Source of the DNA: a virus
IMG/VR virus record: IMGVR_UViG_3300031578_000001
Strand: one strand, 5' to 3'
Length of the DNA stretch: 64,000 bases
Part shown: one piece after another, positions 7,029 through 31,701 of the stretch
Numbering within the stretch: the first letter of the stretch is position 1
How the letters are laid out: each line of letters begins with the position of its first letter
The notes under the pieces: generated by a model
The model's database searches: none
What the model was told of the DNA's origin: nothing
The model's input: only the letters and a program-made list of their open reading frames with translations
Program-made: the position numbers and the translations under genes

Positions 7029-7282
7029 GGGCCGGTGCAGGAGGCGCCTCCCACATATCGAAATTCCTGAAGCAGCGCAAAGAGTGGCTCTCCGGCAGAA
7101 AAGATCCTCCCATCCATCCGAAGAGCAAGAAACTCTGGGACGTTCTCAGGAAACCCTCCTTCGTCACGCCTCATATGATCAGGAGGATCGGCGGTGGGGC
7201 TGCGCTCGGTTACATTACCGCAGCGAGTCTCCCAGGAATCGCCAGGCGCCTTCGTGTGCTTCTCAAGAAGGACCGTAAATGA
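6734..7282 (+). CDS. putative internal virion protein with glycine-zipper-like segments, overlapping the upstream gene by 295 nt
   Basis: Strong RBS GGAAGGGG; SFLDEILPIFEKEG leader-like motif; C-terminal LLAILGSAIGAGAGG and IGGGAALGY; ATGA-coupled to RNAP. Confidence 0.6.
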   Translation: MDARLTSRFGESFLDEILPIFEKEGGGEEGRGSSDHRVRSCGFEAEACQEEDTSQEKEGSSQEESPGETEGSGQEKVARKKEKGGSSETLLAILGSAIGAGAGGASHISKFLKQRKEWLSGRKDPPIHPKSKKLWDVLRKPSFVTPHMIRRIGGGAALGYITAASLPGIARRLRVLLKKDRK

Positions 7283-10200
7283 TTGACGCCGATCTCCAGT
7301 TTCCAGAGATGATGAAGCGCGTCGAGCGGACGATTGCCTCAGCATTCCCGATCGAATCGACCGGTCACATTATGGAGTTGAGCAATCTCGAGTGGAAGGG
7401 ATTCGGTAACGATGTGCGTGACAACATCACCCTTCACAAAGACTACAAGATGAAGGACAAGACCCTTTCGACCGATCTGGTGGGCGACATCACCATCCGC
7501 AAGAAAGGTGGAAAAGTGGTGGATAAGAAGACCGGGGCGGTCCTGCTCACGCTTCCCCATATCACCAACCGAGCCTCCTATATCGTCAACGGGAATGAGG
7601 TCCAGACCATCAATCAGCTTAGGCTCAGACCCGGGCCGTATACGCGGTTCACCTCCGATGACAATACCGAGACCTTCATCAATGCGGCCGGTGGCGGATA
7701 CAAGATCATCTTTGACAGGCAGACCGGTGTCATTCGGATCAAGTCGGGCACGACGTTCGTCTACATCTACCCCATCATGAAAGCCCTTGGCGTGTCTGAC
7801 CAGGCGATGCAGAGTGCTTGGGGATCGGTGATCTTCGAGGCGAACAAGAAGTATGACAAGCGTGAGCACGTCGAGAAACTCTTCAGGACGATGCGGAGAT
7901 TCAGCGCCGTTCCGGATAATCAGGTCGAGGTGGATCAGGCCGTGGAGGACTTCTTCAACTCGAAGAGGATCGATCCGAAGATCTCCAAGATCACATTGAA
8001 AAAGGAATTCACGAGTATCACCCCGGAATTGCTCCTGGACGCGAGCCGCAAGGCCGTGGATCTGGCCAAAGGGACGGCCGAGATGGACGACACGGAATCA
8101 CTGGCTTTCAAATCGATTCACTCGGTCGAGGACTTCGTCCCGGAGAAACTCGAGAGAGCCGTGCCGTCGATTCGTCGCCAGATCCAGATAAAGATGGATC
8201 GGATTCCTGTCGTCGAAACATTGATTTCGCCCAGGATGTTCTCGAATCCGGTGATCGACTGGTTCATGACCAGCGAGTTTACCAGGTATTCGGATCAGCA
8301 GAACCCCATCGACATGGCCGGGACCTCCCAGCTCACGACCACCATGGGCGAGGGAGGTATCCGGAGTATGCACGCCGTCACGGACCAGGTGCGAACGGTT
8401 CACCCATCCCAGATGGGTTTCCTGGATCCGCTGCACACTCCTGAAGGCGGAAAGATTGGCGTCACCGGGCACCTGACCATCGGAGCTCAGAAGAGAGGCG
8501 ACTCCCTCTTCTTGACCGTTCTCAACGCGAGGACGGGAGCACAGACTCAGAAGAGCGCGCAGGAGCTCGAGGACGCAACGGTGGCCTTCAATGATCAGTA
8601 CGTTCTCGACACTGGAAAGCCTAAACCCATCGCTTCCCTGATCGCGGCCAGGAAGGCGGGCAAGATCCAGATGGTCCCATCCGGAGAAGCGGACTTCATC
8701 TTTAAGGATCCCCGTTCTTTCTTCTCGGTCGCATCCAACGCGATTCCGTTCCTGCACAACAACAGTTCGAACCGCGGGCAGATGGCCGACCGTCATATCG
8801 AGCAGGCCGTTCCGCTTGTCAACCCCGACAGACCCCTGGTCCAGGCTCGGTTCAAGGGCGACATGGGGTACGACGATTACTTCGGCAAATACTCGAATGT
8901 AGCCGCTCCGATGGCTGGCACCGTGACCAAGGTCACGGACGATCTGATCAGGATCAAAGATCAGTCGGACCAAACCCACGACGTCAGATTGCACCACAAC
9001 TATCCTCTCAATGGGGGCTCGTTCCTCACGGACAGGCCTGTCGTGGTCACGGGGGATCGTGTCACTAAAGGCCAAGTCATCGCAGAGAACAATTTCACCA
9101 AGGATGGATCTCTGGCGCTCGGTAAGAATCTCCGCACGGCCCTGATCCCTTACAAGGGTCAGAATTTCGAGGACGGGGTGGTCATTTCCCAGGATGCCGC
9201 TACGAAGCTCACCTCGGAACATAAGCATGAGATGCGTCTCGATCTGACGAAGGACATTAAGATCGGACTCGACATCTGGCTGGCGCACTATCCGGACGAG
9301 GTGTCGAAGGTGAACCGGGGGAAGTACGACACGTCCGGAGTCATTCGTAAGGGCTCGAGAATCGATCGTGGCGATGTCCTGATCCCTGCCGTGGAGCAAG
9401 TCCAGATTCATGAAGAATATGATTACGCGAGGCTTCACAAGGCCCTGCGTCGACCCTGGCGCAATGTGGCGGTCACGTGGGAGTCGGATTATCCAGGAAC
9501 CGTGGTGGACGTGGTGAGGACGGCTAAGTTCATCAAGGTGTTCATCAGGACGGAGGAGGCTGCCCAGGTAGGCGACAAGTTATGCTATACCCCGGATCAT
9601 GAGGTTTTGACGCTCAGCGGATGGAAGCCTATTGCGGAGGTGACTCTCGACGATTGGGTAGCGGTTCTGGATGCAGATGGATTCCTTAGATACGAGCAGC
9701 CATACGAACTCCATTCTTACCTGATAGACGAGAACATCTACTCGCTGGAATCCCAACAGGTATCTCTGTCCGTGACTACGAATCACAATCTCTATGTCCG
9801 TAAGAGAGGGAATAAGGAGCACGAACTTATTCCCGCCGCTGAGTGCGTTGGAAAGCGCGTTCGACATAAAAAAGATGCGAAATGGGATGGTTCTTCCGTC
9901 GAAAAGATCGTGATCCCTGGATACACGGTGAAGTGCGGGCAGGGTGGCGCGGCGACGAAAATGATAGAGCCCTCCGAATTCGAGTCACGGGACTTTCTTC
10001 GTTTCTTGGGATTCTTCATTGCTGAGGGGAACCGGTGCGCCCCGAGGCGCGGCTCTTACAGAGTTTCGCTATCTCAGAATGACGGACCGAACAAGGTGTG
10101 GATCAAGCGGGTCCTCAAGAGACTCGGTCTCGGTTGTTCTCTGCCGAAAGGTAAGGTGGAGTTCTGTCACAGGGGAATCTGGGAATGGCTTGATTGTGTG

Positions 10201-13200
10201 GGTGATGGCGCTGGGAACAAACATATTCCGAAGTTGATCCTCGGTTTTAGCAGTGACCTTCTATTGTGCCTCTGGGAAGGACTGCATAGGGGAGATGGAT
10301 CAATAAGCAAGTCTGGCTCTGAGATCTACTATACATCGAGCCGTCAACTCGCGGATCAGGTTCAAGAATTGGCTTTGAAGGTCGGCTGGTCTGGAAATAT
10401 CTACACCAGATTCGAGGCTGGATGGGAGACGATCATTAAAGGGAAGAAGACTAAAGCCAACTTTGATGGTCTTGTGGTTCGGATCGTGAAATCGAAGAAC
10501 CAACCCATGATCAACCACGGGCACGCACGGACGCAGAACGGACAGGTGGAGGAATTGCGGCGATATTGTGGTCCGGTCCACTGTGTCACGGTTCCAGGCC
10601 ACATACTATATACGAGGAGAAATGGAAAGCCGGTCTGGTGCGGTAATTCCAATAGGGCAGGCGGCAAGGGCATCATCGTGAATATCCTTCCGGACAACGA
10701 GATGCTCAGGGATGAGTCGGGACAACCTCTCGACGTCCTGTTCAATCCCGGAGGCGTTGCCGGTCGAGTTAACCCGGGCCAGATCTTCGAGGGTGCAGCC
10801 GGAAAGGTGGCGCTGAAGACGGGCAAGCAGTACCTCGTCGACAACTTCTCGGAGCAGTCGTCCCTGGAGATGGTCAAGAAAAATCTCAAAGACGCCGGTA
10901 TGAGCGACCTCGAGAGCGTCACAGATCCCACGTCCAATAATACGGTCAAGGACGTGTTCGTCGGGAACGTGCATTTCGTGAAGTTGCAGCACCAGGTGAG
11001 TAAGAAGTTCTCGGCTCGGGGGATCGGAGGATACACGGCCGATGAGCAGCCCTCTAAGGTCAGCGGTGAGTCGGCACAGAACATCGGTTCAGGAGAGATC
11101 TATGCTCTACTGGCGTCAGGATCTCTTCATTTTTTGAAGGATGCTGCGACCCTGAAGTCGCAGTCGAATCCTGAATACTGGAGAGCCATGCAACTCGGGC
11201 TTCCCACTCCTCCTCCGAAACAACCTTTCATTCTCGACAAGTTCATCACGAGTCTCGAGGGCGCAGGGATCAACATGAAGCGGGAAGGAAACTCGCTGAA
11301 GGTCCTTCCCATGACGGACAAGGAAACTGAGTCGAGATCGAAGGGAGAGATCAAGAGTCCGGATGTCGTGAGAGCCTCGGACCTTCGTCCGGAACGAGGG
11401 GGTCTGTTCGACAAGGCCGTGACGGGAGGTATAGGCGGGACATCATGGTCCCACATCGATCTCGAGACGCCGGTCCCTAACCCTCTCATGGAGAAGTCGG
11501 TGATCTCTGTTCTGGGCCTCAAGCCGGCCGAGTACAGGGCAATCATGGCTGGGAATCTGTTCGTGACCCAGGACGGAAAATTCACAGCGGATCACCAGAA
11601 GGGACAGCCTGCCGGCGTCGGTCTGAAAATCCTTCTGGACAATGTGAACGTGAACCGAGAGCTCGAGAAGACCATCGTCGCCATTCGTGTGGCCAGGGGT
11701 GCGCGTCTCAACGAACTAAACCTCCGTAGACGCTATCTTCAGGCACTCAAGGCCTCTAAGATGACGCCGTCCGAGGCGTACATTCAGTCGAAAATCCCGG
11801 TCATTCCTCCGGCGTTCCGGCCGATCTATCCTCTTCCTGACGGGTCGCTGAACGTGGCCGATCCGAACCATAGCTACCGCGAGATCCTCATGATCAACAA
11901 CCAGCTGAAGGATCTCGCAGCCAAAGGAGTAGACAACAAGAACCTGGCACCAATCCGTGCGGATCTATTCGCAGCGGTCCAGGGTATGACCGGGATGATG
12001 GAGCCCCTTACCAGATCGAAGAACTTCAGGGGATTCGTGTCCACGATCAAGGGAAGGGTGAATAAGCGGGGCCTGTTCCAAGGTCGTGTGGTGAAGCGAC
12101 CACAGGATCTGTCCGGCCGCTCCACCATCATCCCGGACCCACAGCTCGGAATCGACGAGATGGGGATGCCCGCGGAGATGGGCCTTGTCATCTACAAACC
12201 GTTCATTGTGCGCCGACTCGTCGGTCTCGGGTACAAGCCGACCGAGGCCCTCGATCTCATCGACAAGAAAGACGAGAAGGCCCTCGAGGCACTCAGGCAG
12301 GAGGCGAAGGAGAGACCGGCCTATCTGAATCGAGCTCCCACGCTTCACAAATTCGGCATCATGCCTTTCCATCCGAAGATCATGGAAGGGAAAGCGATCA
12401 GGATCAATCCGTTGATCGTCCGGGGGTACAACGCCGACTTTGACGGGGACGATCAGATAGGCATAGTGTTATTGCACCTCGACCAGGAATCTCTTACCTT
12501 CGTAGAAGAGCAGTACGGTAAGAGATTCCTGGAGGACAGAGATGTGACGGCTCGTTACAAATGCTGCGTTCCGGCGTTTCAATCCGGGCGCTTGATCATG
12601 GTAGATCTCGCGGATTTCCCTGCCCTTCAGAAATTCAGAACTACTGAAGGGCGTAACGGCCCGATCGATTGGCATAAGATTCCGAAGGGCACCAGCGTAA
12701 TCGCCTATAATGAGTCCTCTGGTTCGCTGAAGTGGGCCAGAGCCACGGTCTGGTCCAAACACTATGACCGGCTTGTCGAGATCGTCGAACTTCAGAGTGG
12801 GAGACAGATCATCACCGATGACGATCCTCGCGCTGTGTACGGTATAGTCGCAGGATCGCTCGATTTTGTGAGGGCAACTCCAAAGGAGGCGGTTGAGACA
12901 GGGATTTTCGTACCCAGAATGGCGACAGCGGAGGTGCCGGATCTTGAACCAGAGTACATTCCGGCCCGAAATATCAAAGGAGCCAGATTACACCTGAAGG
13001 AGCGCATCGATCTCACAGGAGATTTTGGATATTTACTCGGATCCTTGGCTGGGGATGGCTGGCCGGTTTTTGTCCATGATGATGCCCGCGGCGTATCACT
13101 CGCTGGGATAGCAGACGAGGTAGTGGCCCGATGTGACCGGGCGGTAGACTCGCTGTTCGATGGCGCGGCGCCTGAATGTAGCCCGGTGGATGGTAAGGAA

Positions 13201-15885
13201 TCCTACGGCGAGAGTCGTCGAGTGACTTGGACTTCGGTCGAGCTTGGCTGGTTCATACACGGCCTGATCGGGAGGGGGGCGGAGAACAAGCATCTCCCTC
13301 CTTGGGTGTTCTCTTGTCGTAAGGAATTCAGATTTTCCGTGTTCGCCGGTCTCATGGATACGGACGGCGGAGTCGGAATTTCCAAGGCAAAGAAAAAGCC
13401 GCAACTCATGGCAAGCTATTCCTCTGTCAGTCTGCGGCTTGTAAGGGAGGTCAGGCTCCTCGCGGCTTCTTTGGGAATCGATAGCCGGATCACACCATCT
13501 AAGACCCCAGCCGGAGAGCCCTTTTGGGTGCTTAGTTTTTCAAATATCGGAATCAAGGAATGGGGAGGATCTGGTTTACAAAATCCGGACAAGATCAGAA
13601 AGATCTCCGAGACACCTGTCGATCCAAATTCCAATGTGGCTGCCCGATTTGATATCGTTCCGATCTCGTCCGGCCTTGCCCACGAGATCCGTAAGGTGAT
13701 CAAGGCTCCAAGGGATGCTTCCAAGGAAAGGAAATCGATCTATGTTGTTCTTAGTAAGGCGATCACCGTTGGATCTATGAGTCGCCAGATAGCTGTAAAG
13801 ATACTCAGCATGTTCAAGACGTTCGATCATCCAGATTACGAGAGGTGGAAGACGATTGTTAGATCCGGCGTCAAGTGGGATCGAGTCGTTTCGTTTGAAA
13901 GAACCGGTATCAAGGAAACTGGGTATGACTTGACTGTTCCCGGGTTTGAGACCTTTGTCTCGATCGATGGACTCGTTTTGTCGAACACCATGGGCGTTCA
14001 CGTTCCTGTGAGCGAAGAGGCCAGGATCGAGGCCCTGTCGAAGATGCCGTCAAAGCAGCTCTTTTCCGTCACGGATGACTCGGTGATTCACACGCCGACC
14101 AAGGAATACGTCCTTGGTCTCTACCTCATGACGAAACCTATTGGGCCTAAGGTGACGGCCAAGAATGTTTCCGAGATGCTCGATCGGTTCAACAAGAAAG
14201 AGATCCTGGTGAACCAGACTGTGAGCATCCTCGGGAAGATCTGGACGCCTGGACAGGCTCTCGTGAACGATGTGTTTCCTTCCGGGATGAGGCCCGGCAA
14301 CGTCATTGTCAATAAGAGCAAGATGTCGGCCCTGATCGAGGAAGCTGCGAGGACCTACCCTAAGGAGGCCGGGAGCGTCATCACGAAACTCAAGGACCTC
14401 GGTGCGTTCTACGTCACGGAGATTGGGTACTCGGTCGGTCTCAAGGATCTCGAATTCAATTACGTGAAGAGGGACAAGATTCTCGCGGATGCGGCCAAGA
14501 AGACGCCCAGAATAGGATTCGAGGCGGCCTACGGACAGGCCCTCGGTCGTCTCGACAATCAGGTGAAAGGAATGAAGGGGAATCGATTCGTTCTCGGGAA
14601 CATCGAGTCGGGAGCCTTCGGTAAGGCCGACATGGTGACGCAGATGATCGCCACACCGGTGGCGGTGCGTGATCATAAAAATGAACTCATTGAAGTTCCA
14701 ATCGCCAAGAGCTTCGTAGAGGGGCACAGCATCACGTCATACTGGTCCACGATTCCAGGCGCACGGAAGGGCCTCATCGAGAAGGGCCTCGGTACCGCCG
14801 AGACGGGAGCGCTGAGTAAGAGGCTCATCAACACGACGATCGAGCAGATCATTTCGATTCAGGACTGTGGAACGCTCGAAGGCATCATGATGCCCATCGA
14901 ATCGAGGGAAGCGGTCGACCGTGTGGTCTCCGACGGGCGAAACGCCGGCAAGATATTGACTCAGTCCCTTGCCAGGCAGATGAAGGCCGCAGGGAAGTCA
15001 CAGGTCAAGGTCAGATCTCCGTTAACTTGCCGCGCTCAGAGAGGAATCTGCGCGAAGTGTTTTGGTCTGCTCGAGAACGGTCAGTTCCCTCCCATCGGGT
15101 ATCACGTAGGTGTCCTCGCGGGTCAGGCCATAAGCGAGCCTATGACCCAACTGATGCTTAAATCTTTTCATACCGGCGGTGCCATGAGCCGGAAGATGGT
15201 CGGTTTCGATCGGATCCGCCAGATCATGGAGATGCCCGAGAATGTTCCCGGGAAAGCTACGATCGCCATGACGACCGGGACCGTGGATAGCATCACTCAG
15301 GCTGCCGGTGGCGGCTGGATCGTGAAGATAGATGACGTGGATCACTTCATCCCGAAAGAGCGTGGACTGGGGGTTAAGCGCGGAGATAGAGTTCTCGCCG
15401 GTAAGACGATATCGAAGACCGGAGTCGTGAGGCCTCAGGATCTACTCTCGGCTACGAACGACATCAACGTGGTTCGTGGCCGTCTGATCAAGGACCTCGA
15501 AAATGAGTTCAGCCAGGGAGGCGTCAGGATCAAGCGTAAACTCTTCGAGACGGTAGTGAAGCCCATGACCGATAGGTCCGAGGTGCTTGATGCCGGGGAT
15601 GGAGAGAAGCACGAGATCTTCAAGGGGGATATCATTCCGACGAATCTGATCGATGAGACCAACAAGAAGATCAAACAGACCGGCGGCCGGCTGATCCAGT
15701 TCAAGCCGTCACTTCTGTCGATTAGGGTCGCCCCTTATCACAGCGGGGATTTCGTTGGTAAATTGATGTTCGAGCGTCCACATGAGACAATCTCTGCGGC
15801 GCCTCGGATAGGGGCCAAGTCGGATATCGCTACGGGTCATCCGATTACGCAGTATGTTTTCGGCCAGCTCGGAAAGAAGAAATGA
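7279..15885 (+). CDS. rpoBC: DNA-directed RNA polymerase, fused beta-beta' subunits, with two inteins (2868 aa; ~2001 aa spliced)
   Basis: Beta motifs NAIPFLHNNSSNR, GQNFEDG, GDKL/SNRAGGKG, NPGGVAGRVNPGQ, KLQHQVSKKFSAR. Beta' motifs IPPAFRP, DLSGRS, LNRAPTLH, catalytic NADFDGD, bridge helix GARKGL..TAETG, SPLTC..C..C Zn site, trigger loop QAISEPMTQLMLKSFHTGG. Confidence 0.97.
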   Translation: MIDADLQFPEMMKRVERTIASAFPIESTGHIMELSNLEWKGFGNDVRDNITLHKDYKMKDKTLSTDLVGDITIRKKGGKVVDKKTGAVLLTLPHITNRASYIVNGNEVQTINQLRLRPGPYTRFTSDDNTETFINAAGGGYKIIFDRQTGVIRIKSGTTFVYIYPIMKALGVSDQAMQSAWGSVIFEANKKYDKREHVEKLFRTMRRFSAVPDNQVEVDQAVEDFFNSKRIDPKISKITLKKEFTSITPELLLDASRKAVDLAKGTAEMDDTESLAFKSIHSVEDFVPEKLERAVPSIRRQIQIKMDRIPVVETLISPRMFSNPVIDWFMTSEFTRYSDQQNPIDMAGTSQLTTTMGEGGIRSMHAVTDQVRTVHPSQMGFLDPLHTPEGGKIGVTGHLTIGAQKRGDSLFLTVLNARTGAQTQKSAQELEDATVAFNDQYVLDTGKPKPIASLIAARKAGKIQMVPSGEADFIFKDPRSFFSVASNAIPFLHNNSSNRGQMADRHIEQAVPLVNPDRPLVQARFKGDMGYDDYFGKYSNVAAPMAGTVTKVTDDLIRIKDQSDQTHDVRLHHNYPLNGGSFLTDRPVVVTGDRVTKGQVIAENNFTKDGSLALGKNLRTALIPYKGQNFEDGVVISQDAATKLTSEHKHEMRLDLTKDIKIGLDIWLAHYPDEVSKVNRGKYDTSGVIRKGSRIDRGDVLIPAVEQVQIHEEYDYARLHKALRRPWRNVAVTWESDYPGTVVDVVRTAKFIKVFIRTEEAAQVGDKLCYTPDHEVLTLSGWKPIAEVTLDDWVAVLDADGFLRYEQPYELHSYLIDENIYSLESQQVSLSVTTNHNLYVRKRGNKEHELIPAAECVGKRVRHKKDAKWDGSSVEKIVIPGYTVKCGQGGAATKMIEPSEFESRDFLRFLGFFIAEGNRCAPRRGSYRVSLSQNDGPNKVWIKRVLKRLGLGCSLPKGKVEFCHRGIWEWLDCVGDGAGNKHIPKLILGFSSDLLLCLWEGLHRGDGSISKSGSEIYYTSSRQLADQVQELALKVGWSGNIYTRFEAGWETIIKGKKTKANFDGLVVRIVKSKNQPMINHGHARTQNGQVEELRRYCGPVHCVTVPGHILYTRRNGKPVWCGNSNRAGGKGIIVNILPDNEMLRDESGQPLDVLFNPGGVAGRVNPGQIFEGAAGKVALKTGKQYLVDNFSEQSSLEMVKKNLKDAGMSDLESVTDPTSNNTVKDVFVGNVHFVKLQHQVSKKFSARGIGGYTADEQPSKVSGESAQNIGSGEIYALLASGSLHFLKDAATLKSQSNPEYWRAMQLGLPTPPPKQPFILDKFITSLEGAGINMKREGNSLKVLPMTDKETESRSKGEIKSPDVVRASDLRPERGGLFDKAVTGGIGGTSWSHIDLETPVPNPLMEKSVISVLGLKPAEYRAIMAGNLFVTQDGKFTADHQKGQPAGVGLKILLDNVNVNRELEKTIVAIRVARGARLNELNLRRRYLQALKASKMTPSEAYIQSKIPVIPPAFRPIYPLPDGSLNVADPNHSYREILMINNQLKDLAAKGVDNKNLAPIRADLFAAVQGMTGMMEPLTRSKNFRGFVSTIKGRVNKRGLFQGRVVKRPQDLSGRSTIIPDPQLGIDEMGMPAEMGLVIYKPFIVRRLVGLGYKPTEALDLIDKKDEKALEALRQEAKERPAYLNRAPTLHKFGIMPFHPKIMEGKAIRINPLIVRGYNADFDGDDQIGIVLLHLDQESLTFVEEQYGKRFLEDRDVTARYKCCVPAFQSGRLIMVDLADFPALQKFRTTEGRNGPIDWHKIPKGTSVIAYNESSGSLKWARATVWSKHYDRLVEIVELQSGRQIITDDDPRAVYGIVAGSLDFVRATPKEAVETGIFVPRMATAEVPDLEPEYIPARNIKGARLHLKERIDLTGDFGYLLGSLAGDGWPVFVHDDARGVSLAGIADEVVARCDRAVDSLFDGAAPECSPVDGKESYGESRRVTWTSVELGWFIHGLIGRGAENKHLPPWVFSCRKEFRFSVFAGLMDTDGGVGISKAKKKPQLMASYSSVSLRLVREVRLLAASLGIDSRITPSKTPAGEPFWVLSFSNIGIKEWGGSGLQNPDKIRKISETPVDPNSNVAARFDIVPISSGLAHEIRKVIKAPRDASKERKSIYVVLSKAITVGSMSRQIAVKILSMFKTFDHPDYERWKTIVRSGVKWDRVVSFERTGIKETGYDLTVPGFETFVSIDGLVLSNTMGVHVPVSEEARIEALSKMPSKQLFSVTDDSVIHTPTKEYVLGLYLMTKPIGPKVTAKNVSEMLDRFNKKEILVNQTVSILGKIWTPGQALVNDVFPSGMRPGNVIVNKSKMSALIEEAARTYPKEAGSVITKLKDLGAFYVTEIGYSVGLKDLEFNYVKRDKILADAAKKTPRIGFEAAYGQALGRLDNQVKGMKGNRFVLGNIESGAFGKADMVTQMIATPVAVRDHKNELIEVPIAKSFVEGHSITSYWSTIPGARKGLIEKGLGTAETGALSKRLINTTIEQIISIQDCGTLEGIMMPIESREAVDRVVSDGRNAGKILTQSLARQMKAAGKSQVKVRSPLTCRAQRGICAKCFGLLENGQFPPIGYHVGVLAGQAISEPMTQLMLKSFHTGGAMSRKMVGFDRIRQIMEMPENVPGKATIAMTTGTVDSITQAAGGGWIVKIDDVDHFIPKERGLGVKRGDRVLAGKTISKTGVVRPQDLLSATNDINVVRGRLIKDLENEFSQGGVRIKRKLFETVVKPMTDRSEVLDAGDGEKHEIFKGDIIPTNLIDETNKKIKQTGGRLIQFKPSLLSIRVAPYHSGDFVGKLMFERPHETISAAPRIGAKSDIATGHPITQYVFGQLGKKK
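9583..10647 (+). mobile_element. intein with LAGLIDADG homing endonuclease in RNAP beta (355 aa)
   Basis: Splits GDKL|SNR; starts CYTPDH, Block B TTNH, FLGFFIAEG and WEGLHRGDG motifs, ends WCGN with +1 Ser. Confidence 0.93.
12451..13986 (+). mobile_element. non-canonical intein with LAGLIDADG endonuclease directly after the RNAP beta' NADFDGD motif (512 aa)
   Basis: Removal restores NADFDGD|TMGVHVP; YLLGSLAGDG and FAGLMDTDG motifs; C-terminal GYDLTV..TFV..DGLVLSN|T; starts DQIG rather than C/S. Confidence 0.85.
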
Positions 15886-26832: not shown

Positions 26833-29800
26833 ATGTTCGTAGATGCTTCAGGATTGGCGATCACGCCCCTCGGCATGGACACGCCGGAATGGGGTCCGAA
26901 CATGATCCACCTGCATCCGCGCACGATGGAGAAGATCGCTTCCGAACTCTTCGTTCCCGAGCGTCTCGTCGAGTTCATGGAATCGATTCGTCCGAGGGAG
27001 GACGGTCGATACATCCTTCTACATGCCATCGGTGCCGGAGAATACTGGGGTTGCTTTCTTCCTGGATCACTCGTTCAAAGGGCAGACGGACGGTATGTTC
27101 CGATCGAGGACGTTAAGAAGGGGGATCGGGTTCTCAGTCGTAGCGGGCACTTCCGCGAGGTCCTTGCCGTCTGGAAGCATGGCCGCCATCGTGAGGGTGT
27201 CAGCATTTCGGTGGAGGGCCTTGTTGATGACATCAAAACTACGCCGAATCACGAATTTCTCGGCCTTCCTTTTGATGAGATTGTCTGTGACAGGGATCGT
27301 ACCGGGCGGTGTATTCCAGAGACCAGCGGCACGCAGAATATATGCAAGAGGACCCAGTCCGCAGCCTGCGTTTTAGCGCCGAAGACGCATACAGGGCGTT
27401 GGGTGGCGGCCGAGGCGCTGGCTCTCAAGGACTTCCTTCTCTGTGCCATTCCTGATCATGACGAGCCTCCTATTTTCACGGAGGATGAGGCCCGCGCTAT
27501 TGGTCTGTGGGTGGCAGATGGTAATTTCATCGGTAATGTTTTGGAGTTCTCTGTCGCCGACTCCGAGATATATCTCGTCGAGGACATCGAGAAACTCACA
27601 AAGGCCAAGACCTACGACGGGCACGGTGCCTGCAAATCGGTTCGAGTTAATCGCCCCGATCTCGCGCCCAAGATTAAGGCCCTCTTCGGAGAATATTCTC
27701 ACGGGAAGCGAATTCCCGGCACATTCTGTAGGCAGCCTGAGGAGGTCGTGCTCGCCTTTCTTTCTGGCTACTTTGACGGTGACGGTTCACAGAACCTGAA
27801 AGACAGTACGACCTATGCCCACACTGTCTCGAAGGATTTGGCCCTTGGGGTTCAGAGGCTTCTCTGGTCCGTCAAGATACCGGCGACCGTGTGCATGACA
27901 CCTGGTGGGTTCCACGTCAACTTCTCGCTGGATCGAGGACGTCGACTCACCGAACGATGCCGGAAATTCTCTGATCACACCCCGAAGGGGCGCCCGAGTT
28001 ATCGGCAGTTCTTTATCGACGGGTACGTGTGTCTCCCGATCAGGAAACTGGAGAGGTTTCAGATTGACGGCCCAGTCTACGATCTGGAGGTCGAGGAGGA
28101 GCACGCCTATAACGTCGGCCAAGTGGTCTGTCACAATAGCAATAAGAACGGTGACTACTTCCCGGAGTGGAGTCTCAAGGGCCTCCAGATGCCGGACGAG
28201 GTGAAGGTCTACGTCCGGGATCGAGGTCTTCCTGTTCCCCAGGAATACGGCTATAGGACCTTCGAGTTCTACGGCTGGCCTTACAGGTATCACAACAACT
28301 CCGACCCGATCCATACCATCGGCGAGCGCGTTTGCTGCTCGGCCTACAACGATCGCATGCATCGGATCGAGTTGATAATTTTCGTTCGGAAGGATCTGGC
28401 TCCGGATCTCGTGAATAGGATTGACGCCGGTGTGCAGGTTCCCTGGTCCATGGGATCGAAGCTCCCCTTCGACGTTTGTCTGCCGGCTGGATCTCCCGTG
28501 CATGGTCCAGAGGGTGTGGAGCGGATTGAGGACGTTCAGGAGGGTGATCTGGTCTTTACGAAGGAAGGCCGGGTTCGTCCGGTCACTAAGACCTTCAAGA
28601 GGCTATTCTCCGGGACTCTGGTGACCCTCGACGTGAAGGGGCTTCCCGAAACGCTTACACTGACCGGAAACCATCCGATCTTTATCTTCCGAAAGGAACA
28701 GATCAGGCAGCCAGGCGGTCGGAGATTGGATGAAAGGGCTAAAGAGGCTGAAGGTCAGTTCGTGAACTCCGAGGATGTGAAGCCCGGAGATTACGTCTTC
28801 GTGCCTAAGATCAGGCCGGACGATACGGAGTTCGAGGCTATCGACCCTGTATTCTCCCGGTTGTGCGGCTACTACCTCGGCGACGGTCACATCATCACCC
28901 AGCGTCGTGGTGAGAAAAAGGATGGTCCCAGAGATTTCACAGGTGTTTCCATCTCCTGTGGGACCGATGACGAGGAGCATCTGAATAGAGTGGTGAACAC
29001 CCTTGAAGATCTCTCCGAATCCAAGGTTCACGTCTATTCAGCGGGAGAAGACAGAGCCGCCGTTGCTGTGGTGTGCCACGACAAGATTCTTGCCGCGAGG
29101 GTTGCGGCTATGTGTGGCCGTAAGAAAGAGAAGCGACTTCCTCCCGAAATCTTCTATAGCGCAACGGAATCGCGGTTGGCTCTTCTCGGTGGTTTGATGG
29201 ACTCAGATGGAAGTATTGATCAGAAGAAGAGTTCATCGAGAATCACGATCACTCTTCTGGATCTTATGCGCCAAACGCAGATGCTTGCGTTGTCTGTTGG
29301 GATACCGGCTACTCTTTCTTTCGTGAAAAGCAAAGGAAACGCGTATCGCGGGGCCGATACAATCGTAGGGCAGGCGCATCTCGGCGCGACTGCGACTCAG
29401 ATTTTGGCCCCGTACTCGATCAAGTGCGGAAGGGCTGAGCCGAGAGCGCGGTGGGGCGCAACGGCGGTCGAGCGAGAGGATGGTTTCCTCTTCCCAGTGA
29501 AAACCGTGATCCATGAGGAGGTCGAGCAAGAACCGGTCTTCAACCTTTCCGTGGAAGAGGATGAGACCTACTTGATCGGCCCGGCAGTCCATAACTGCTC
29601 TGTTTGCATGAATCCGGCCAAGACCCGGCAGCAGTATTGCTTCGTCTCCGGAACCCTGATCACGCTCGCCAACGGTTCCGTCAAACCGATCGAAGAAATT
29701 CGTGTTGGCGACTCGGTACTGGGGGCCGAGGGTCTTCCTACGACAGTCACCCATCTGTTCCAGCGAGAAGTAGACGAGGAGATCGTCGAGATCCGCCATA

Positions 29801-31701
29801 GCGTTAGCCAAGAGATCCTGCGCTGCACGAAGGAGCACCCGATCCTTTCCTCTCCGAGGGAGGCTTTCTCCTGCTACTACCATCGGTACGGCAGAGAAGT
29901 CCGAAGCTGCTTCCCTGGGGCGTTCGAGGAGTGTTCGTCCTGTCGTAGTCCCGAGGAGACTCCCGATTTTGTGAAGGCACGAGATCTCCGGATTGGGGAT
30001 TCCGTGTACTCTCCCGGTGTTCTACAGGAAACTCCATCAGATCTTATCGAGACCGATGCCTACATGATTGGCCTTTTCATGGCCGAGGGCAGCTTCGCCA
30101 AGGCCGGTGATCGATTCCGCTCTGCCCAGTTTTCCATCCATGAAGATGAGTCGCACCTCATCGAGAAGATTGCCGCCTTCGGCGAAAAGTTCAACCACAC
30201 GGCCAAGGTATATGGTCGGGCCGGGAGTCAGGGCATCAGTGTCCGAGTCCACTCCCATGATGCTGCTGCCTTCCTTCACGGGCATACCGGAGAGTATGCC
30301 CATTCAAAATTCGCCTCTGACCAGGTCGTCTTCTCTCCTCCGCAGATCGTCGCCCAGTATCTGGGCGGTCTATGGGATGGAGACGGCCATGTTCAGTCCC
30401 GGTCCGGAAGACAGCCCGTGTCCCGACTGAATACGGCATCGAGATCTCTGGCGTGGCAGACGTCGGCGCTGCTCCGGAAGGTGGGACACCCGGCGTATCT
30501 TGGGCGTGCCCGCGTTCCTGGAGGCCCCACAACCAGGACGAACAAGTTTGACCAGTGGTACGTCACCACCGACTTTCTCAGGTCGACGTCCTTGTCCAGG
30601 TCCGCAATCCGCCGTGGGATCGAAATCGGCTCGATCCGGGAGATAGGGCGATCCCGCTATAGGGGGCCTGTTTTCAACTTCGAGACGGAAAACAACACCT
30701 ATGTGGCCGGCGGTATCGCCGTCCATAATTGCAACCACTTGAAGAACATGCTGAATAGGATTCTTCCTGATGGGACGAAAGTTTTCTCCTTCAACTATTT
30801 CCCCAGGTTCTTCGATATCAGCGAGGTGACAGTCCCCGCGGATCGCAGCGCCTACTCGTTGAAGAAGGTGGCGGAGTTCATGGAATCCGGACAGGCCAGT
30901 CCGATCTGGGTTCCAGGGACGGATTACGTGTCCATCGGTCCCACCCATGAAGAGTTCAGAAGGGTTATCGAAACCGAGATGGAAAAGATCGCTGAGCGGC
31001 CGAGATTCACTCTGGAGGAGCAGGCTCACTTCGACGAAATGATCGAGATCATGTCGAATGGCGGCGAAAAGGAAGCGGACATCGACAAAGAGGTTCCTGC
31101 CCAGGAACCCGGGAAGAATCTCGGATCCGAACCCGTGAGCAAGGATCTATGGCAGTTCGTTTACGACCTGGCCAAGAAGGACCGTGAGATGGTTCAGGAG
31201 ATGCCGTCGTCGATGCGAGGTGCTCTCAGGAACCAGCCGATCGACAAGGTGCTCCAGGCCCTAACGGCAACTGGAATCCAGATGACCCCTGATGAGTCCG
31301 AGGACATCATAGGGGATCGTGAACTACCAGACGAACTTGACACTTCCTGTCCGGATCCTACACTACTCAAGAGGATTTCAGGTATCGTTCCGGGAAGATC
31401 GATGTTCGAACCTCGATTCTCGGTACGGGTGATCCAGATCTCGAGAGTTGGAGATGAAGAGTCGGATCTCCCGAAATTTCTTGTGAAAAGGGCGAACGGG
31501 ATCTATGATCAATACATCAAGTGGCTCCGTTCAATCGAGTTGGAGAAGCTGGCAGAACTTGTCGCTCATCCTCCTGTTCAACTGCTCCTTAGCCCGGACG
31601 TTCTAAAAGACAAAATGTTCGAGTTCGAGGAGGAAAAGACAGGATGCTCCTTGGAAGAGGAATTCCTGCCTTTCGTTGCGGGAGCGGCCCTTGAGGATTG
31701 A
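26833..31701 (+). CDS. prohead maturation protease (HK97/herpes assemblin fold) with a Zn-ribbon insertion and three inteins (1622 aa; ~523 aa spliced)
   Basis: Exteins contain YRYH, WSMG (catalytic Ser) and DISEVTVPAD (compare EVSxVxxPA of S78 proteases), plus reconstituted CSVC-x10-CNH; lies between terminase and scaffold/MCP genes. Confidence 0.8.
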   Translation: MFVDASGLAITPLGMDTPEWGPNMIHLHPRTMEKIASELFVPERLVEFMESIRPREDGRYILLHAIGAGEYWGCFLPGSLVQRADGRYVPIEDVKKGDRVLSRSGHFREVLAVWKHGRHREGVSISVEGLVDDIKTTPNHEFLGLPFDEIVCDRDRTGRCIPETSGTQNICKRTQSAACVLAPKTHTGRWVAAEALALKDFLLCAIPDHDEPPIFTEDEARAIGLWVADGNFIGNVLEFSVADSEIYLVEDIEKLTKAKTYDGHGACKSVRVNRPDLAPKIKALFGEYSHGKRIPGTFCRQPEEVVLAFLSGYFDGDGSQNLKDSTTYAHTVSKDLALGVQRLLWSVKIPATVCMTPGGFHVNFSLDRGRRLTERCRKFSDHTPKGRPSYRQFFIDGYVCLPIRKLERFQIDGPVYDLEVEEEHAYNVGQVVCHNSNKNGDYFPEWSLKGLQMPDEVKVYVRDRGLPVPQEYGYRTFEFYGWPYRYHNNSDPIHTIGERVCCSAYNDRMHRIELIIFVRKDLAPDLVNRIDAGVQVPWSMGSKLPFDVCLPAGSPVHGPEGVERIEDVQEGDLVFTKEGRVRPVTKTFKRLFSGTLVTLDVKGLPETLTLTGNHPIFIFRKEQIRQPGGRRLDERAKEAEGQFVNSEDVKPGDYVFVPKIRPDDTEFEAIDPVFSRLCGYYLGDGHIITQRRGEKKDGPRDFTGVSISCGTDDEEHLNRVVNTLEDLSESKVHVYSAGEDRAAVAVVCHDKILAARVAAMCGRKKEKRLPPEIFYSATESRLALLGGLMDSDGSIDQKKSSSRITITLLDLMRQTQMLALSVGIPATLSFVKSKGNAYRGADTIVGQAHLGATATQILAPYSIKCGRAEPRARWGATAVEREDGFLFPVKTVIHEEVEQEPVFNLSVEEDETYLIGPAVHNCSVCMNPAKTRQQYCFVSGTLITLANGSVKPIEEIRVGDSVLGAEGLPTTVTHLFQREVDEEIVEIRHSVSQEILRCTKEHPILSSPREAFSCYYHRYGREVRSCFPGAFEECSSCRSPEETPDFVKARDLRIGDSVYSPGVLQETPSDLIETDAYMIGLFMAEGSFAKAGDRFRSAQFSIHEDESHLIEKIAAFGEKFNHTAKVYGRAGSQGISVRVHSHDAAAFLHGHTGEYAHSKFASDQVVFSPPQIVAQYLGGLWDGDGHVQSRSGRQPVSRLNTASRSLAWQTSALLRKVGHPAYLGRARVPGGPTTRTNKFDQWYVTTDFLRSTSLSRSAIRRGIEIGSIREIGRSRYRGPVFNFETENNTYVAGGIAVHNCNHLKNMLNRILPDGTKVFSFNYFPRFFDISEVTVPADRSAYSLKKVAEFMESGQASPIWVPGTDYVSIGPTHEEFRRVIETEMEKIAERPRFTLEEQAHFDEMIEIMSNGGEKEADIDKEVPAQEPGKNLGSEPVSKDLWQFVYDLAKKDREMVQEMPSSMRGALRNQPIDKVLQALTATGIQMTPDESEDIIGDRELPDELDTSCPDPTLLKRISGIVPGRSMFEPRFSVRVIQISRVGDEESDLPKFLVKRANGIYDQYIKWLRSIELEKLAELVAHPPVQLLLSPDVLKDKMFEFEEEKTGCSLEEEFLPFVAGAALED
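27052..28137 (+). mobile_element. intein 1 of the protease (362 aa, LAGLIDADG)
   Basis: YWG|CFLPG ... TTPNH ... GLWVADG, SGYFDGDG ... VVCHN|S. Confidence 0.93.
28477..29595 (+). mobile_element. intein 2 of the protease (373 aa, LAGLIDADG)
   Basis: FDV|CLPAG ... TGNH ... GYYLGDG, GGLMDSDG ... PAVHN|C. Confidence 0.93.
29638..30729 (+). mobile_element. intein 3 of the protease (364 aa, LAGLIDADG)
   Basis: QQY|CFVSG ... TKEH ... GLFMAEG, GGLWDGDG ... IAVHN|C. Confidence 0.93.

Follow-up and report, generated by a model that had tools for sequence, protein, structure and literature searches.

An intein family in the catalytic loop of phage RNA polymerases, without a conserved residue-1 nucleophile, is probably excised by a hitherto unstudied splicing chemistry

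A stretch of 64,000 nucleotides from the IMG/VR virus record IMGVR_UViG_3300031578_000001 (hereafter the window; the features described below lie on its + strand) encodes a single-chain fused β-β′ RNA polymerase (RNAP) of 2868 amino acids, whose open reading frame (ORF; 7279–15885) was found from the ORF list, its translation and Pfam matches to contain two inteins. We focus here on the second, a 512-residue element (12451–13986; ORF residues 1725–2236) consisting of a Hint splicing domain and a nested LAGLIDADG homing endonuclease, which interrupts the catalytic loop itself. The N-extein ends in NADFDGD (12430–12450), the Mg2+-binding Asp triad, of which Asp−1 is the third catalytic Asp; the C-extein starts with TMGVHVP (13987–14007), the Thr+1 of which is the presumed branch-point nucleophile. 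Residue 1 of the intein is Asp. We favour, with moderate confidence, the reading that this is a mobile homing intein at the D–T junction after the Asp triad, which has lost its residue-1 nucleophile and in which Thr+1 attacks the N-terminal junction directly, in the manner of class 2 inteins. Judged from the sequences of the element and its relatives, its removal probably proceeds by a splicing chemistry hitherto unstudied.

The boundaries of the element are fixed by uninterrupted relatives. Among RNAP relatives gathered by a search with the C-terminal extein (n=109), 93 are contiguous at exactly the D–T junction, with the D-x-D-G-D loop running straight into the next strand; three RNAPs that are 70–74% identical to that of the window (P0121, P0128 and P0122) have no insert, and P0121 and P0128 read NADFDGD-TMGVHVPVSEE. 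The contiguous relatives thus define the insert as exactly the residues from that following the D to the Asn preceding the T, the position claimed for it in an earlier note on this sequence, and identify Thr+1 as native to the host.

The insert is a genuine intein with a homing endonuclease, the evidence for which lies far beyond chance. It has a Pfam match to LAGLIDADG_3 (E 4.8e-19) and a further one, below the cut-off of that family, to Intein_splicing; a profile of the family matched PI-PkoII (1e-9), PI-PfuI and the DnaB mini-intein among PDB sequences. An AlphaFold2 (AF2) model calculated from a 46-sequence alignment (mean predicted local distance difference test score, pLDDT, 86) matched TliVMA in a Foldseek search (E 4e-19), and gave VIA Z scores of 21–28 against endonuclease-bearing inteins and 13–15 against mini-inteins (model residues 11–522). 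The two-domain layout is shared with TliVMA (7qsu, Z 28.4; 7qss, 25.2), PI-PfuI (1dq3, 21.4) and PI-SceI (18–19); all of these, however, belong to class 1, carry Cys1 or Ser1 together with the standard histidines, and are only 13–19% identical to the element. Conservation is given below as counts in an alignment of 113 members of the family, with residue 1 and residue +1 also counted on 174 occupied alleles. Both LAGLIDADG acidic residues are retained in the window copy and in most members: the first motif (GYLLGSLAGDGW; 13027–13062) carries Asp202 (Asp in 77/113, Asn in 34/113) and the second (SVFAGLMDTDGG; 13336–13371) carries Asp305 (Asp in 107/113).

The element is a mobile homing intein and not a fixed domain. 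When presence of this intein type is mapped onto a phylogeny calculated from the extein flanks of 188 RNAPs, at least 33 changes are needed, 28 of which are forced by well-supported branches, and the window gene sits in a clade of four with 99% support, the other three members of which are empty alleles. Intein identity to the window copy (mean 40.6%) is higher than that of the two flanking exteins (38% and 35%) and uncorrelated with it (r = 0.13 and −0.01). A vertically inherited, domesticated insertion is ruled out by the empty nearest RNAPs and by the 33 or more gains and losses. Since every invasion of a naive allele must leave a working polymerase, mobility provides the main argument that the element would be excised and the chain rejoined.

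The family is apparently large and undescribed. A search with the intein and its flanks returned 849 matches, and among the matches listed the same insert was present at the same site in 120 of 120. Scanned in full with HMMER, a set of 1.84 billion cluster representatives yielded 606 matches at E<=1e-30, and scans of metagenomes and viruses added a further 88 loci. The insert was found in none of the 50,697 cultured-phage records of INPHARED, in which the RNAP flank alone was matched. The literature searched, whose coverage was incomplete and leaves novelty unproven, gave no account of the family or of any intein at NADFDGD.

Residue 1 is highly variable within this family. In the alignment it is Gln in 55 members, Glu in 16, Cys and Ala in seven each and Asp in six, with nine other residues also represented; on the 174 occupied alleles the counts are Q74, E22, D16, A13, L12 and C8 with others making up the remainder, Cys or Ser being present in 12, scattered cases. 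On a tree of the same 174 inteins residue 1 has changed at least 85 times, with the 12 Cys/Ser cases arising from at least ten independent events. This turnover indicates that position 1 is effectively free, being neither a decayed nor a retained nucleophile, and the repeated origin of the Cys/Ser cases rules out a subclade that has kept an ancestral Cys1 or Ser1. No Cys is conserved anywhere in the intein.

Elsewhere the splicing domain is strongly constrained. Invariant or near-invariant positions are Asp−1, Leu53, Phe56, Pro57, Trp101, Ser102, His104, Thr122, Asp123, Asp125, Arg127, Ala128, Val129, Tyr130, Gly131, the LAGLIDADG cores, Gly491-Tyr-Asp-Leu-Thr-Val-Pro-Gly, Glu500, Thr501, Phe502, Gly507, Leu510, Ser511 and Asn512; the window copy retains all the Hint-domain invariants of the family. 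His104 (113/113) and Ser102 (Ser or Thr in 113/113) lie in a W-S-K-H motif (12751–12762). The block B region (QIITDDDPRAVYG; 12805–12843) contains Thr122 (B:7; Thr or Ser in 110/113), an Asp at the position expected for His B:10, and the invariant Asp123, Asp125, Arg127 and Gly131; across the family its loop reads [T/S]-D-x-D-P-R and contains no His. In block F (GYDLTVPGFETF; 13921–13956), Gly491, Asp493 (F:4), Leu494 and Phe502 are each present in 113/113 and Glu500 in 108/113, with Glu500-Thr501 replacing the usual His-Asn such that the family reads ETF where inteins usually have HNF. Block G (GLVLSN, then Thr; 13969–13986) ends with Ser511 (G:6; 112/113) and Asn512 (G:7; 113/113). Conservation in blocks F and G exceeds that of the flanks which form the active site of the polymerase itself. 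In the upstream flank of the intein-bearing homologues, Asp−1, Gly−2 and Asp−3 are found in 113/113 each and Asp−5 in 112/113.

These counts bear directly on whether the element is functional. Taken by itself, the window copy gives the impression of being 'broken' at residue 1, in block B and at G:6. We nevertheless consider a dead or inert insert, a sequencing error at residue 1, and canonical splicing from the Cys38-Cys39 pair (12562–12567), which the earlier note had raised as an alternative start, to be extremely improbable as a group. The same pattern recurs in at least 174 homologues at 30–50% identity, with blocks F and G conserved above the polymerase flanks; the oddities are common to the whole family and hence not a local error, which rules out a misread residue 1. 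The gene is moreover the only one in the virus record (120,910 bases, estimated 63% complete) to encode a β′ catalytic domain. A splice start at Cys38/39 is rejected because the two columns are not conserved (column 38: E51/T19/V16/A7; column 39: T19/Q17/K15/S11), other members carrying E, T, V or Q, and because its product would retain a remnant of 38 residues within the catalytic loop, such as is seen in no empty allele.

The earlier note had recognised the Asp1, the CC at 38–39, the QIITDDDPRAVYG sequence at block B, the two LAGLIDADG motifs and blocks F and G, all of which are present, and had concluded that no signature of the three published classes matches the element. The family survey bears this out: residue 1 lacks Cys, Ser or Thr, there is neither a WCT triplet nor a block-B His, and the anomalies extend to at least 174 homologues, only 12 of 174 having Cys or Ser at position 1. 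The note had counted the penultimate Ser as a further anomaly, which it is not; Ser at G:6 is a hallmark of the class 2 KlbA inteins (PMC4031507).

Class 1 inteins have Cys, Ser or Thr at residue 1 and employ Thr B:7 and His B:10 (PMC2807308, PMC4031507). The window element departs from this on both counts, having Asp1 and a block-B sequence, T-D-D-D-P-R, that offers no His in either possible register. The alignment of block B with the canonical TxxH is ambiguous by one residue; the AF2 strand ends at Thr122, which favours Thr122 as B:7.

Class 3 inteins require Trp B:12, Cys F:4 and Thr G:5, and in them an internal nucleophile can substitute for residue 1 (PMC2807308). As in the mycobacteriophage Bethlehem DnaB intein (PMC2807308), the family combines a phage origin and Thr/Ser+1 with the absence of a residue-1 nucleophile; however, the three WCT sites are occupied by Arg127, Asp493 and Leu510, and class 3 inteins retain His B:10. 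Membership of class 3 is accordingly rejected. It appears quite unlikely that the element works by a comparable logic with a different residue, such that an internal Ser or Thr (Ser102, Thr122 or Ser511) makes the initial attack on the N-terminal junction before handing the N-extein to Thr+1. Each of the three is nearly or entirely fixed as a hydroxyl residue (Ser/Thr102 in 113/113, two residues from His104; Thr/Ser122 in 110/113; Ser511 in 112/113), and class 3 sets a precedent for the replacement of residue 1 by an internal nucleophile (PMC2807308). F:4, however, is Asp in the family, Thr B:7 is normally an assisting residue rather than a nucleophile, and the [W/F]-[S/T]-x-[H/E] motif to which Ser102 belongs occurs also in sister inteins with Ser1 or Cys1, and so is not an innovation tied to loss of the nucleophile.

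Class 2, represented by KlbA, is the nearest known class on comparison of the sequences. In these inteins there is no nucleophile at residue 1 and no WCT triplet, and Cys+1 makes a direct attack on the N-terminal amide (PMC2807308, PMC4031507); they have Ser G:6 and need Thr B:7, His B:10 and Asp F:4 (PMC4031507). The family likewise has neither a residue-1 nucleophile nor a WCT triplet, has Ser G:6, Asp F:4 and Thr B:7, and likely shares the logic of a +1 residue that attacks the N-terminal amide directly. The two differ in that KlbA inteins are archaeal mini-inteins of ~168 amino acids with Ala1, Cys+1 and an essential His B:10, whereas the family has a variable residue 1, Thr+1, Asp B:10 and Glu at the block-F His, the window element being 512 amino acids long with an endonuclease and residing in a phage RNAP. 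KlbA was absent from the PDB sequence matches at E<=1 and from the listed fold matches, for which reason we take the likeness to be one of mechanism that probably arose by convergence.

A second set of likenesses is to cysteine-less class 1 inteins (PolB16 OarG, Psp Pol-1 and PI-TkoII/PI-PkoII; fold match 2cw7, Z 26.9), which have in common with the family Thr+1, an invariant His ~20 residues ahead of block B and, probably, an all-oxygen chemistry; they differ in having Ser1 and His B:10, the family being without Ser1. That His forms part of the NX motif described by Pasch et al. (PMC10189870) and is conserved only in cysteine-less Ser1/Thr+1 inteins; in PolB16, which is atypically split with a short N-piece, the NX His is critical and the block-B His dispensable (PMC10189870). 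His104 is the probable NX His of the family. Its counterpart in the profile alignment, within a segment of low score (~8 bit), is the Arg-His of PI-PkoII, a Ser1 intein, and it is preceded by Lys or Arg in 57/113 members.

Asn512 is invariant, and residue +1 is Thr in 173 and Ser in one of the 174 occupied alleles, as against Thr or Ser in 71/93 (76%) of empty ones (Fisher p = 1e-11, uncorrected for relatedness); together the invariant Asn and the invariant +1 hydroxyl suggest that the last three splicing steps (branched ester formation, Asn cyclisation and the acyl shift) are kept. Since neither residue 1 and its surroundings nor NADFDGD offers a nucleophile, the branched ester would have to form without a preceding linear ester. 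The element would thus still splice, each new invasion having to restore the contiguous NADFDGD-TMGVHVP strand, but the first acyl shift would be skipped. The hydroxyl of Thr+1 would instead attack the amide between Asp−1 and residue 1 directly, as in class 2, giving a branched ester; Asn512 would then cyclise with Ser511 as the penultimate residue, as in KlbA inteins, and a final ester to peptide bond shift would join the exteins. Activation of the scissile bond and of the nucleophile may be provided by His104 (NX-like), Asp493 (F:4), Thr122 and the acidic Asp123–Asp125/Glu500, which would replace the histidines. Of the routes considered, we take direct attack by Thr+1 to be the most likely.

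Several points weigh against this proposal. Where an amide has to be attacked directly, Thr is much inferior as a nucleophile to the Cys+1 of KlbA. The family also lacks His B:10, a residue required in class 2 (PMC4031507) and absolutely conserved in the Ser1 inteins examined (PMC10189870). The N-terminal junction is modelled with pLDDT <50. The preference for Thr at +1 could derive in part from the target preference of the endonuclease and from co-conversion of the flanks, and the statistics given for it ignore phylogeny. Splicing itself is something that we infer from mobility and conservation.

A rival outcome is cleavage without ligation. In this case Asn512 would cyclise, perhaps with hydrolysis at Asp−1, and the RNAP would be split post-translationally at its active site, as the earlier note had also contemplated. 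Asn512 is indeed invariant, there is neither a residue-1 nucleophile nor a block-B His, and some relatives carry the polymerase on several genes, with a C-extein of ~88 amino acids following the intein. Cyclisation of Asn, however, needs no +1 hydroxyl, yet Thr or Ser is found at +1 in 174/174; a nick beside the third catalytic Asp would need to be harmless in each of dozens of invasions, and if only the C-terminal junction were cleaved, the Mg2+ loop would be left with a 58 kDa appendage. This outcome is disfavoured by the invariant +1 hydroxyl and by the mobility of the element, and we regard it as distinctly improbable.

A different means of activating the N-terminal amide was also considered, in which Asp−1, alone or with Mg2+ and Asp123–125/Glu500, would activate its own C-terminal amide, either by way of a cyclic anhydride or with the carbonyl polarised by a Lewis acid, and Thr+1 or the freed amine would capture the carbonyl; this would constitute a new splicing chemistry tied to a single insertion site. 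All members seen follow D-x-D/N-G-D (174 proteins, 46 loci), and the three His positions are now hard oxygen ligands (Asp B:10, Glu in block F and Ser G:6). Related inteins of this site have a terminal Asp in place of Asn, and in some of them position −1 is encoded as Asn, suggesting unusual side-chain chemistry at the junction, and a C-terminal Asp or Gln in place of Asn is reported for some inteins (PMC4031507). The invariance of Asp−1, however, is imposed by the polymerase and is uninformative on the intein, restriction to a single site is normal for homing inteins, an anhydride could give isoaspartate in the catalytic loop, and the literature consulted offers no precedent. Substrate or metal assistance of this kind is unlikely. 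A broader combination, which we consider doubtful though somewhat less so, is a fourth splicing route, all-oxygen and independent of residue 1, with activation by Asp−1 and/or Mg2+ and expression from both the full ORF and an internal start (see below); within this same combination, the Mg2+ might be held jointly by the Asp triad of the RNAP and the Asp/Glu cluster of the intein.

Other inteins occupy the same D–T site in related phages, most of which align with the family over their full length at 25–30% identity. In a canonical group Ser1 is combined with S-E-H-H at block B and with His-Asn at the C-terminus; other sisters have Ser1 or Cys1, variant block-B sequences and ends of Trp-Asp, Phe-Asp or Gln-Asp, and in one group Cys1 and a Tyr-Asp end are accompanied by a third catalytic Asp that is encoded as Asn (DFDGN-C...YD-T). 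All of the sisters carry [W/F]-[S/T]-x-[H/E] at the place of Trp101–His104. They resemble the family in insertion point, in an F-P-H/R motif, in a Met near position 32 (at the protein level) and in Thr+1, and differ from it in having kept Ser1 or Cys1. From these sequences the family looks like a derivative of oxygen-ester class 1 (Ser1/Thr+1) inteins at the same site from which Ser1 has been lost.

Further peculiarities of the catalytic loop were observed among occupied alleles. Four sister-bearing proteins (P0127, P0149, P0153 and P0159) read DFDGN-C...Y-D-T, with S-D-N-E in block B and, where His104 would stand, Glu. Asn replaces the second catalytic Asp in the encoded sequence (D-F/Y/H-N-G-D) in 7/174 alleles of the present intein type and in 0/93 empty alleles, and the same substitution occurs in three alleles with other inteins at this RNAP site (examples among the relatives are L023, L052, L055, L057, P0123, P0181, P0212 and P0323). 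Asn-Gly is a sequence prone to deamidation.

The N-terminal segment of the intein differs from the 40–50 residue N-terminal extension that the earlier note had described. The AF2 model has a strand at intein residues 5–10 and a helix at 12–22, with pLDDT <50 at 31–39. Residue 3/4 of solved inteins aligns with model residue 11/12, which is intein residue 1/2, and residue 8 of PI-PkoII aligns with Val40. Taken together, the alignments and the model indicate that residues 1–10 form the canonical first strand and that ~30 residues (~11–39), comprising a helix and a disordered linker, are inserted after it. The first strand (12451–12480; consensus Q-Q-L/I-x-x-V-h-h) loosely resembles the strand that it displaces, T-M-x-V-H-V-P (13987–14010), the bacterial equivalent of which is Q-M-A-V-H-V-P; the resemblance could be due to chance or to strand mimicry in the precursor.

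The linker coincides with signals for an internal translation start. In the window a Shine-Dalgarno-like GGAGGA (12531–12536) is followed, after a 7-nucleotide spacer, by an in-frame GTG (12544–12546) which is codon 32 of the intein (the whole signal spanning 12531–12546). Of the 113 aligned members, 84 have Met in column 32, 18 have Val and nine have Leu, residue 33 is small (T/A/S/P) in 102/113, and about a dozen proteins in the search of representatives start at this point. At the DNA level, 32/46 contiguous relatives have ATG or GTG in column 32, and 28/46 have in addition a Shine-Dalgarno-like motif 3–12 nucleotides upstream, compared with a background for both of 0.56% per codon; the Val codons at this column are all GTG (6/6). 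The motif is spelled by differing pairs of amino acids (Glu-Asp, Lys-Glu, Gly-Gly and, as CGG AGA, Arg-Arg), which points to selection at the nucleotide level.

One of the proteins that start at this point, that of the relative L093 (on a 42.7-kb contig), comes from a truly split intein. Its upstream gene stops 46 amino acids past DFDGD, and the second gene, in another frame with an 11-nucleotide overlap, has AAAGGAG eight bases before its ATG. Residues 1–31 of the window intein (Asp1...Asp31; 12451–12543), comprising the first Hint strand, the inserted helix and the start of the linker, correspond to the IntN of such split relatives; the ORF of the window is itself continuous. On the strength of these nucleotide signals the family would appear to be a cryptically split intein with a short N-piece. 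Other candidates were set aside: L089 is interrupted by no more than one in-frame TGA, and in L090–L092 the contigs end just upstream of the gene and are uninformative. The TGA of L089 (L089:860-880), at which a close homologue has Trp, may be a nonsense mutation, an error or a TGA read as Trp; an in-frame TGA was also flagged in the window's terminase at the first reading of the sequence. No tRNA gene was found within the window.

It is conceivable, but very unlikely, that the codon-32 start dominates, yielding a C-piece (residues 32–512 plus the C-extein), such that the element acts mainly in trans as a split intein and the full precursor is a by-product. This fits the excess of Shine-Dalgarno motif plus start (28/46 against 0.56%), the consistent use of GTG for Val, the spelling of the motif through different amino-acid pairs, the small residue 33 (102/113), and the true split of L093 at the same point, within the disordered linker of the model. 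Contiguous ORFs, however, cannot yield a separate N-piece without a stop codon, and the signals could be relics of repeated fusions. Such a two-piece route would in any case alter how the precursor is made and not the chemistry required at the N-terminal junction.

The host gene, in which Pfam matches Rpb2_6 and Rpb1_1/2/3/5, carries its other intein in the β part (9583–10647; residues 769–1123, 355 amino acids). That intein is inserted between GDKL and SNRAGGKG and looks canonical, with Cys1, T-T-N-H in block B, a Gly-Asn end and Ser+1. The genes around the RNAP ORF include a large terminase and a protein with several intein-like matches, and a 1622-residue ORF (26833–31701) has PHROG matches to intein-bearing proteins and an endonuclease. 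The virus genome appears to be unusually intein-rich. The layout of the polymerase genes varies widely in related phages, with the remainder of β′ often on a separate gene; in P0015, P0025, P0026, P0341 and others only ~88–95 amino acids of polymerase lie downstream of the intein on the same gene.

To our knowledge, three protein-splicing routes are known, two of which dispense with a residue-1 nucleophile and have one origin apiece. The element described here is an intein, and so of a known kind, but its catalytic make-up is new, and the first step of its reaction probably so. The family would add to these two natural groups a third of independent standing and very large size (~600 cluster representatives), mobile and resident in the most conserved loop of the polymerase, that manages without the first nucleophile, a conserved Cys or the histidines normally present in blocks B, F and G. 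A single cloned element could then address both the activation of an amide without an acyl shift and the limits to which a Hint active site can be rewired, and ligation of proteins in an oxidising environment would profit from a cysteine-less splicing domain for which the identity of residue 1 does not matter. With its conserved internal start and its truly split relatives, the family would provide a natural series in which to follow the interconversion of contiguous and split inteins.

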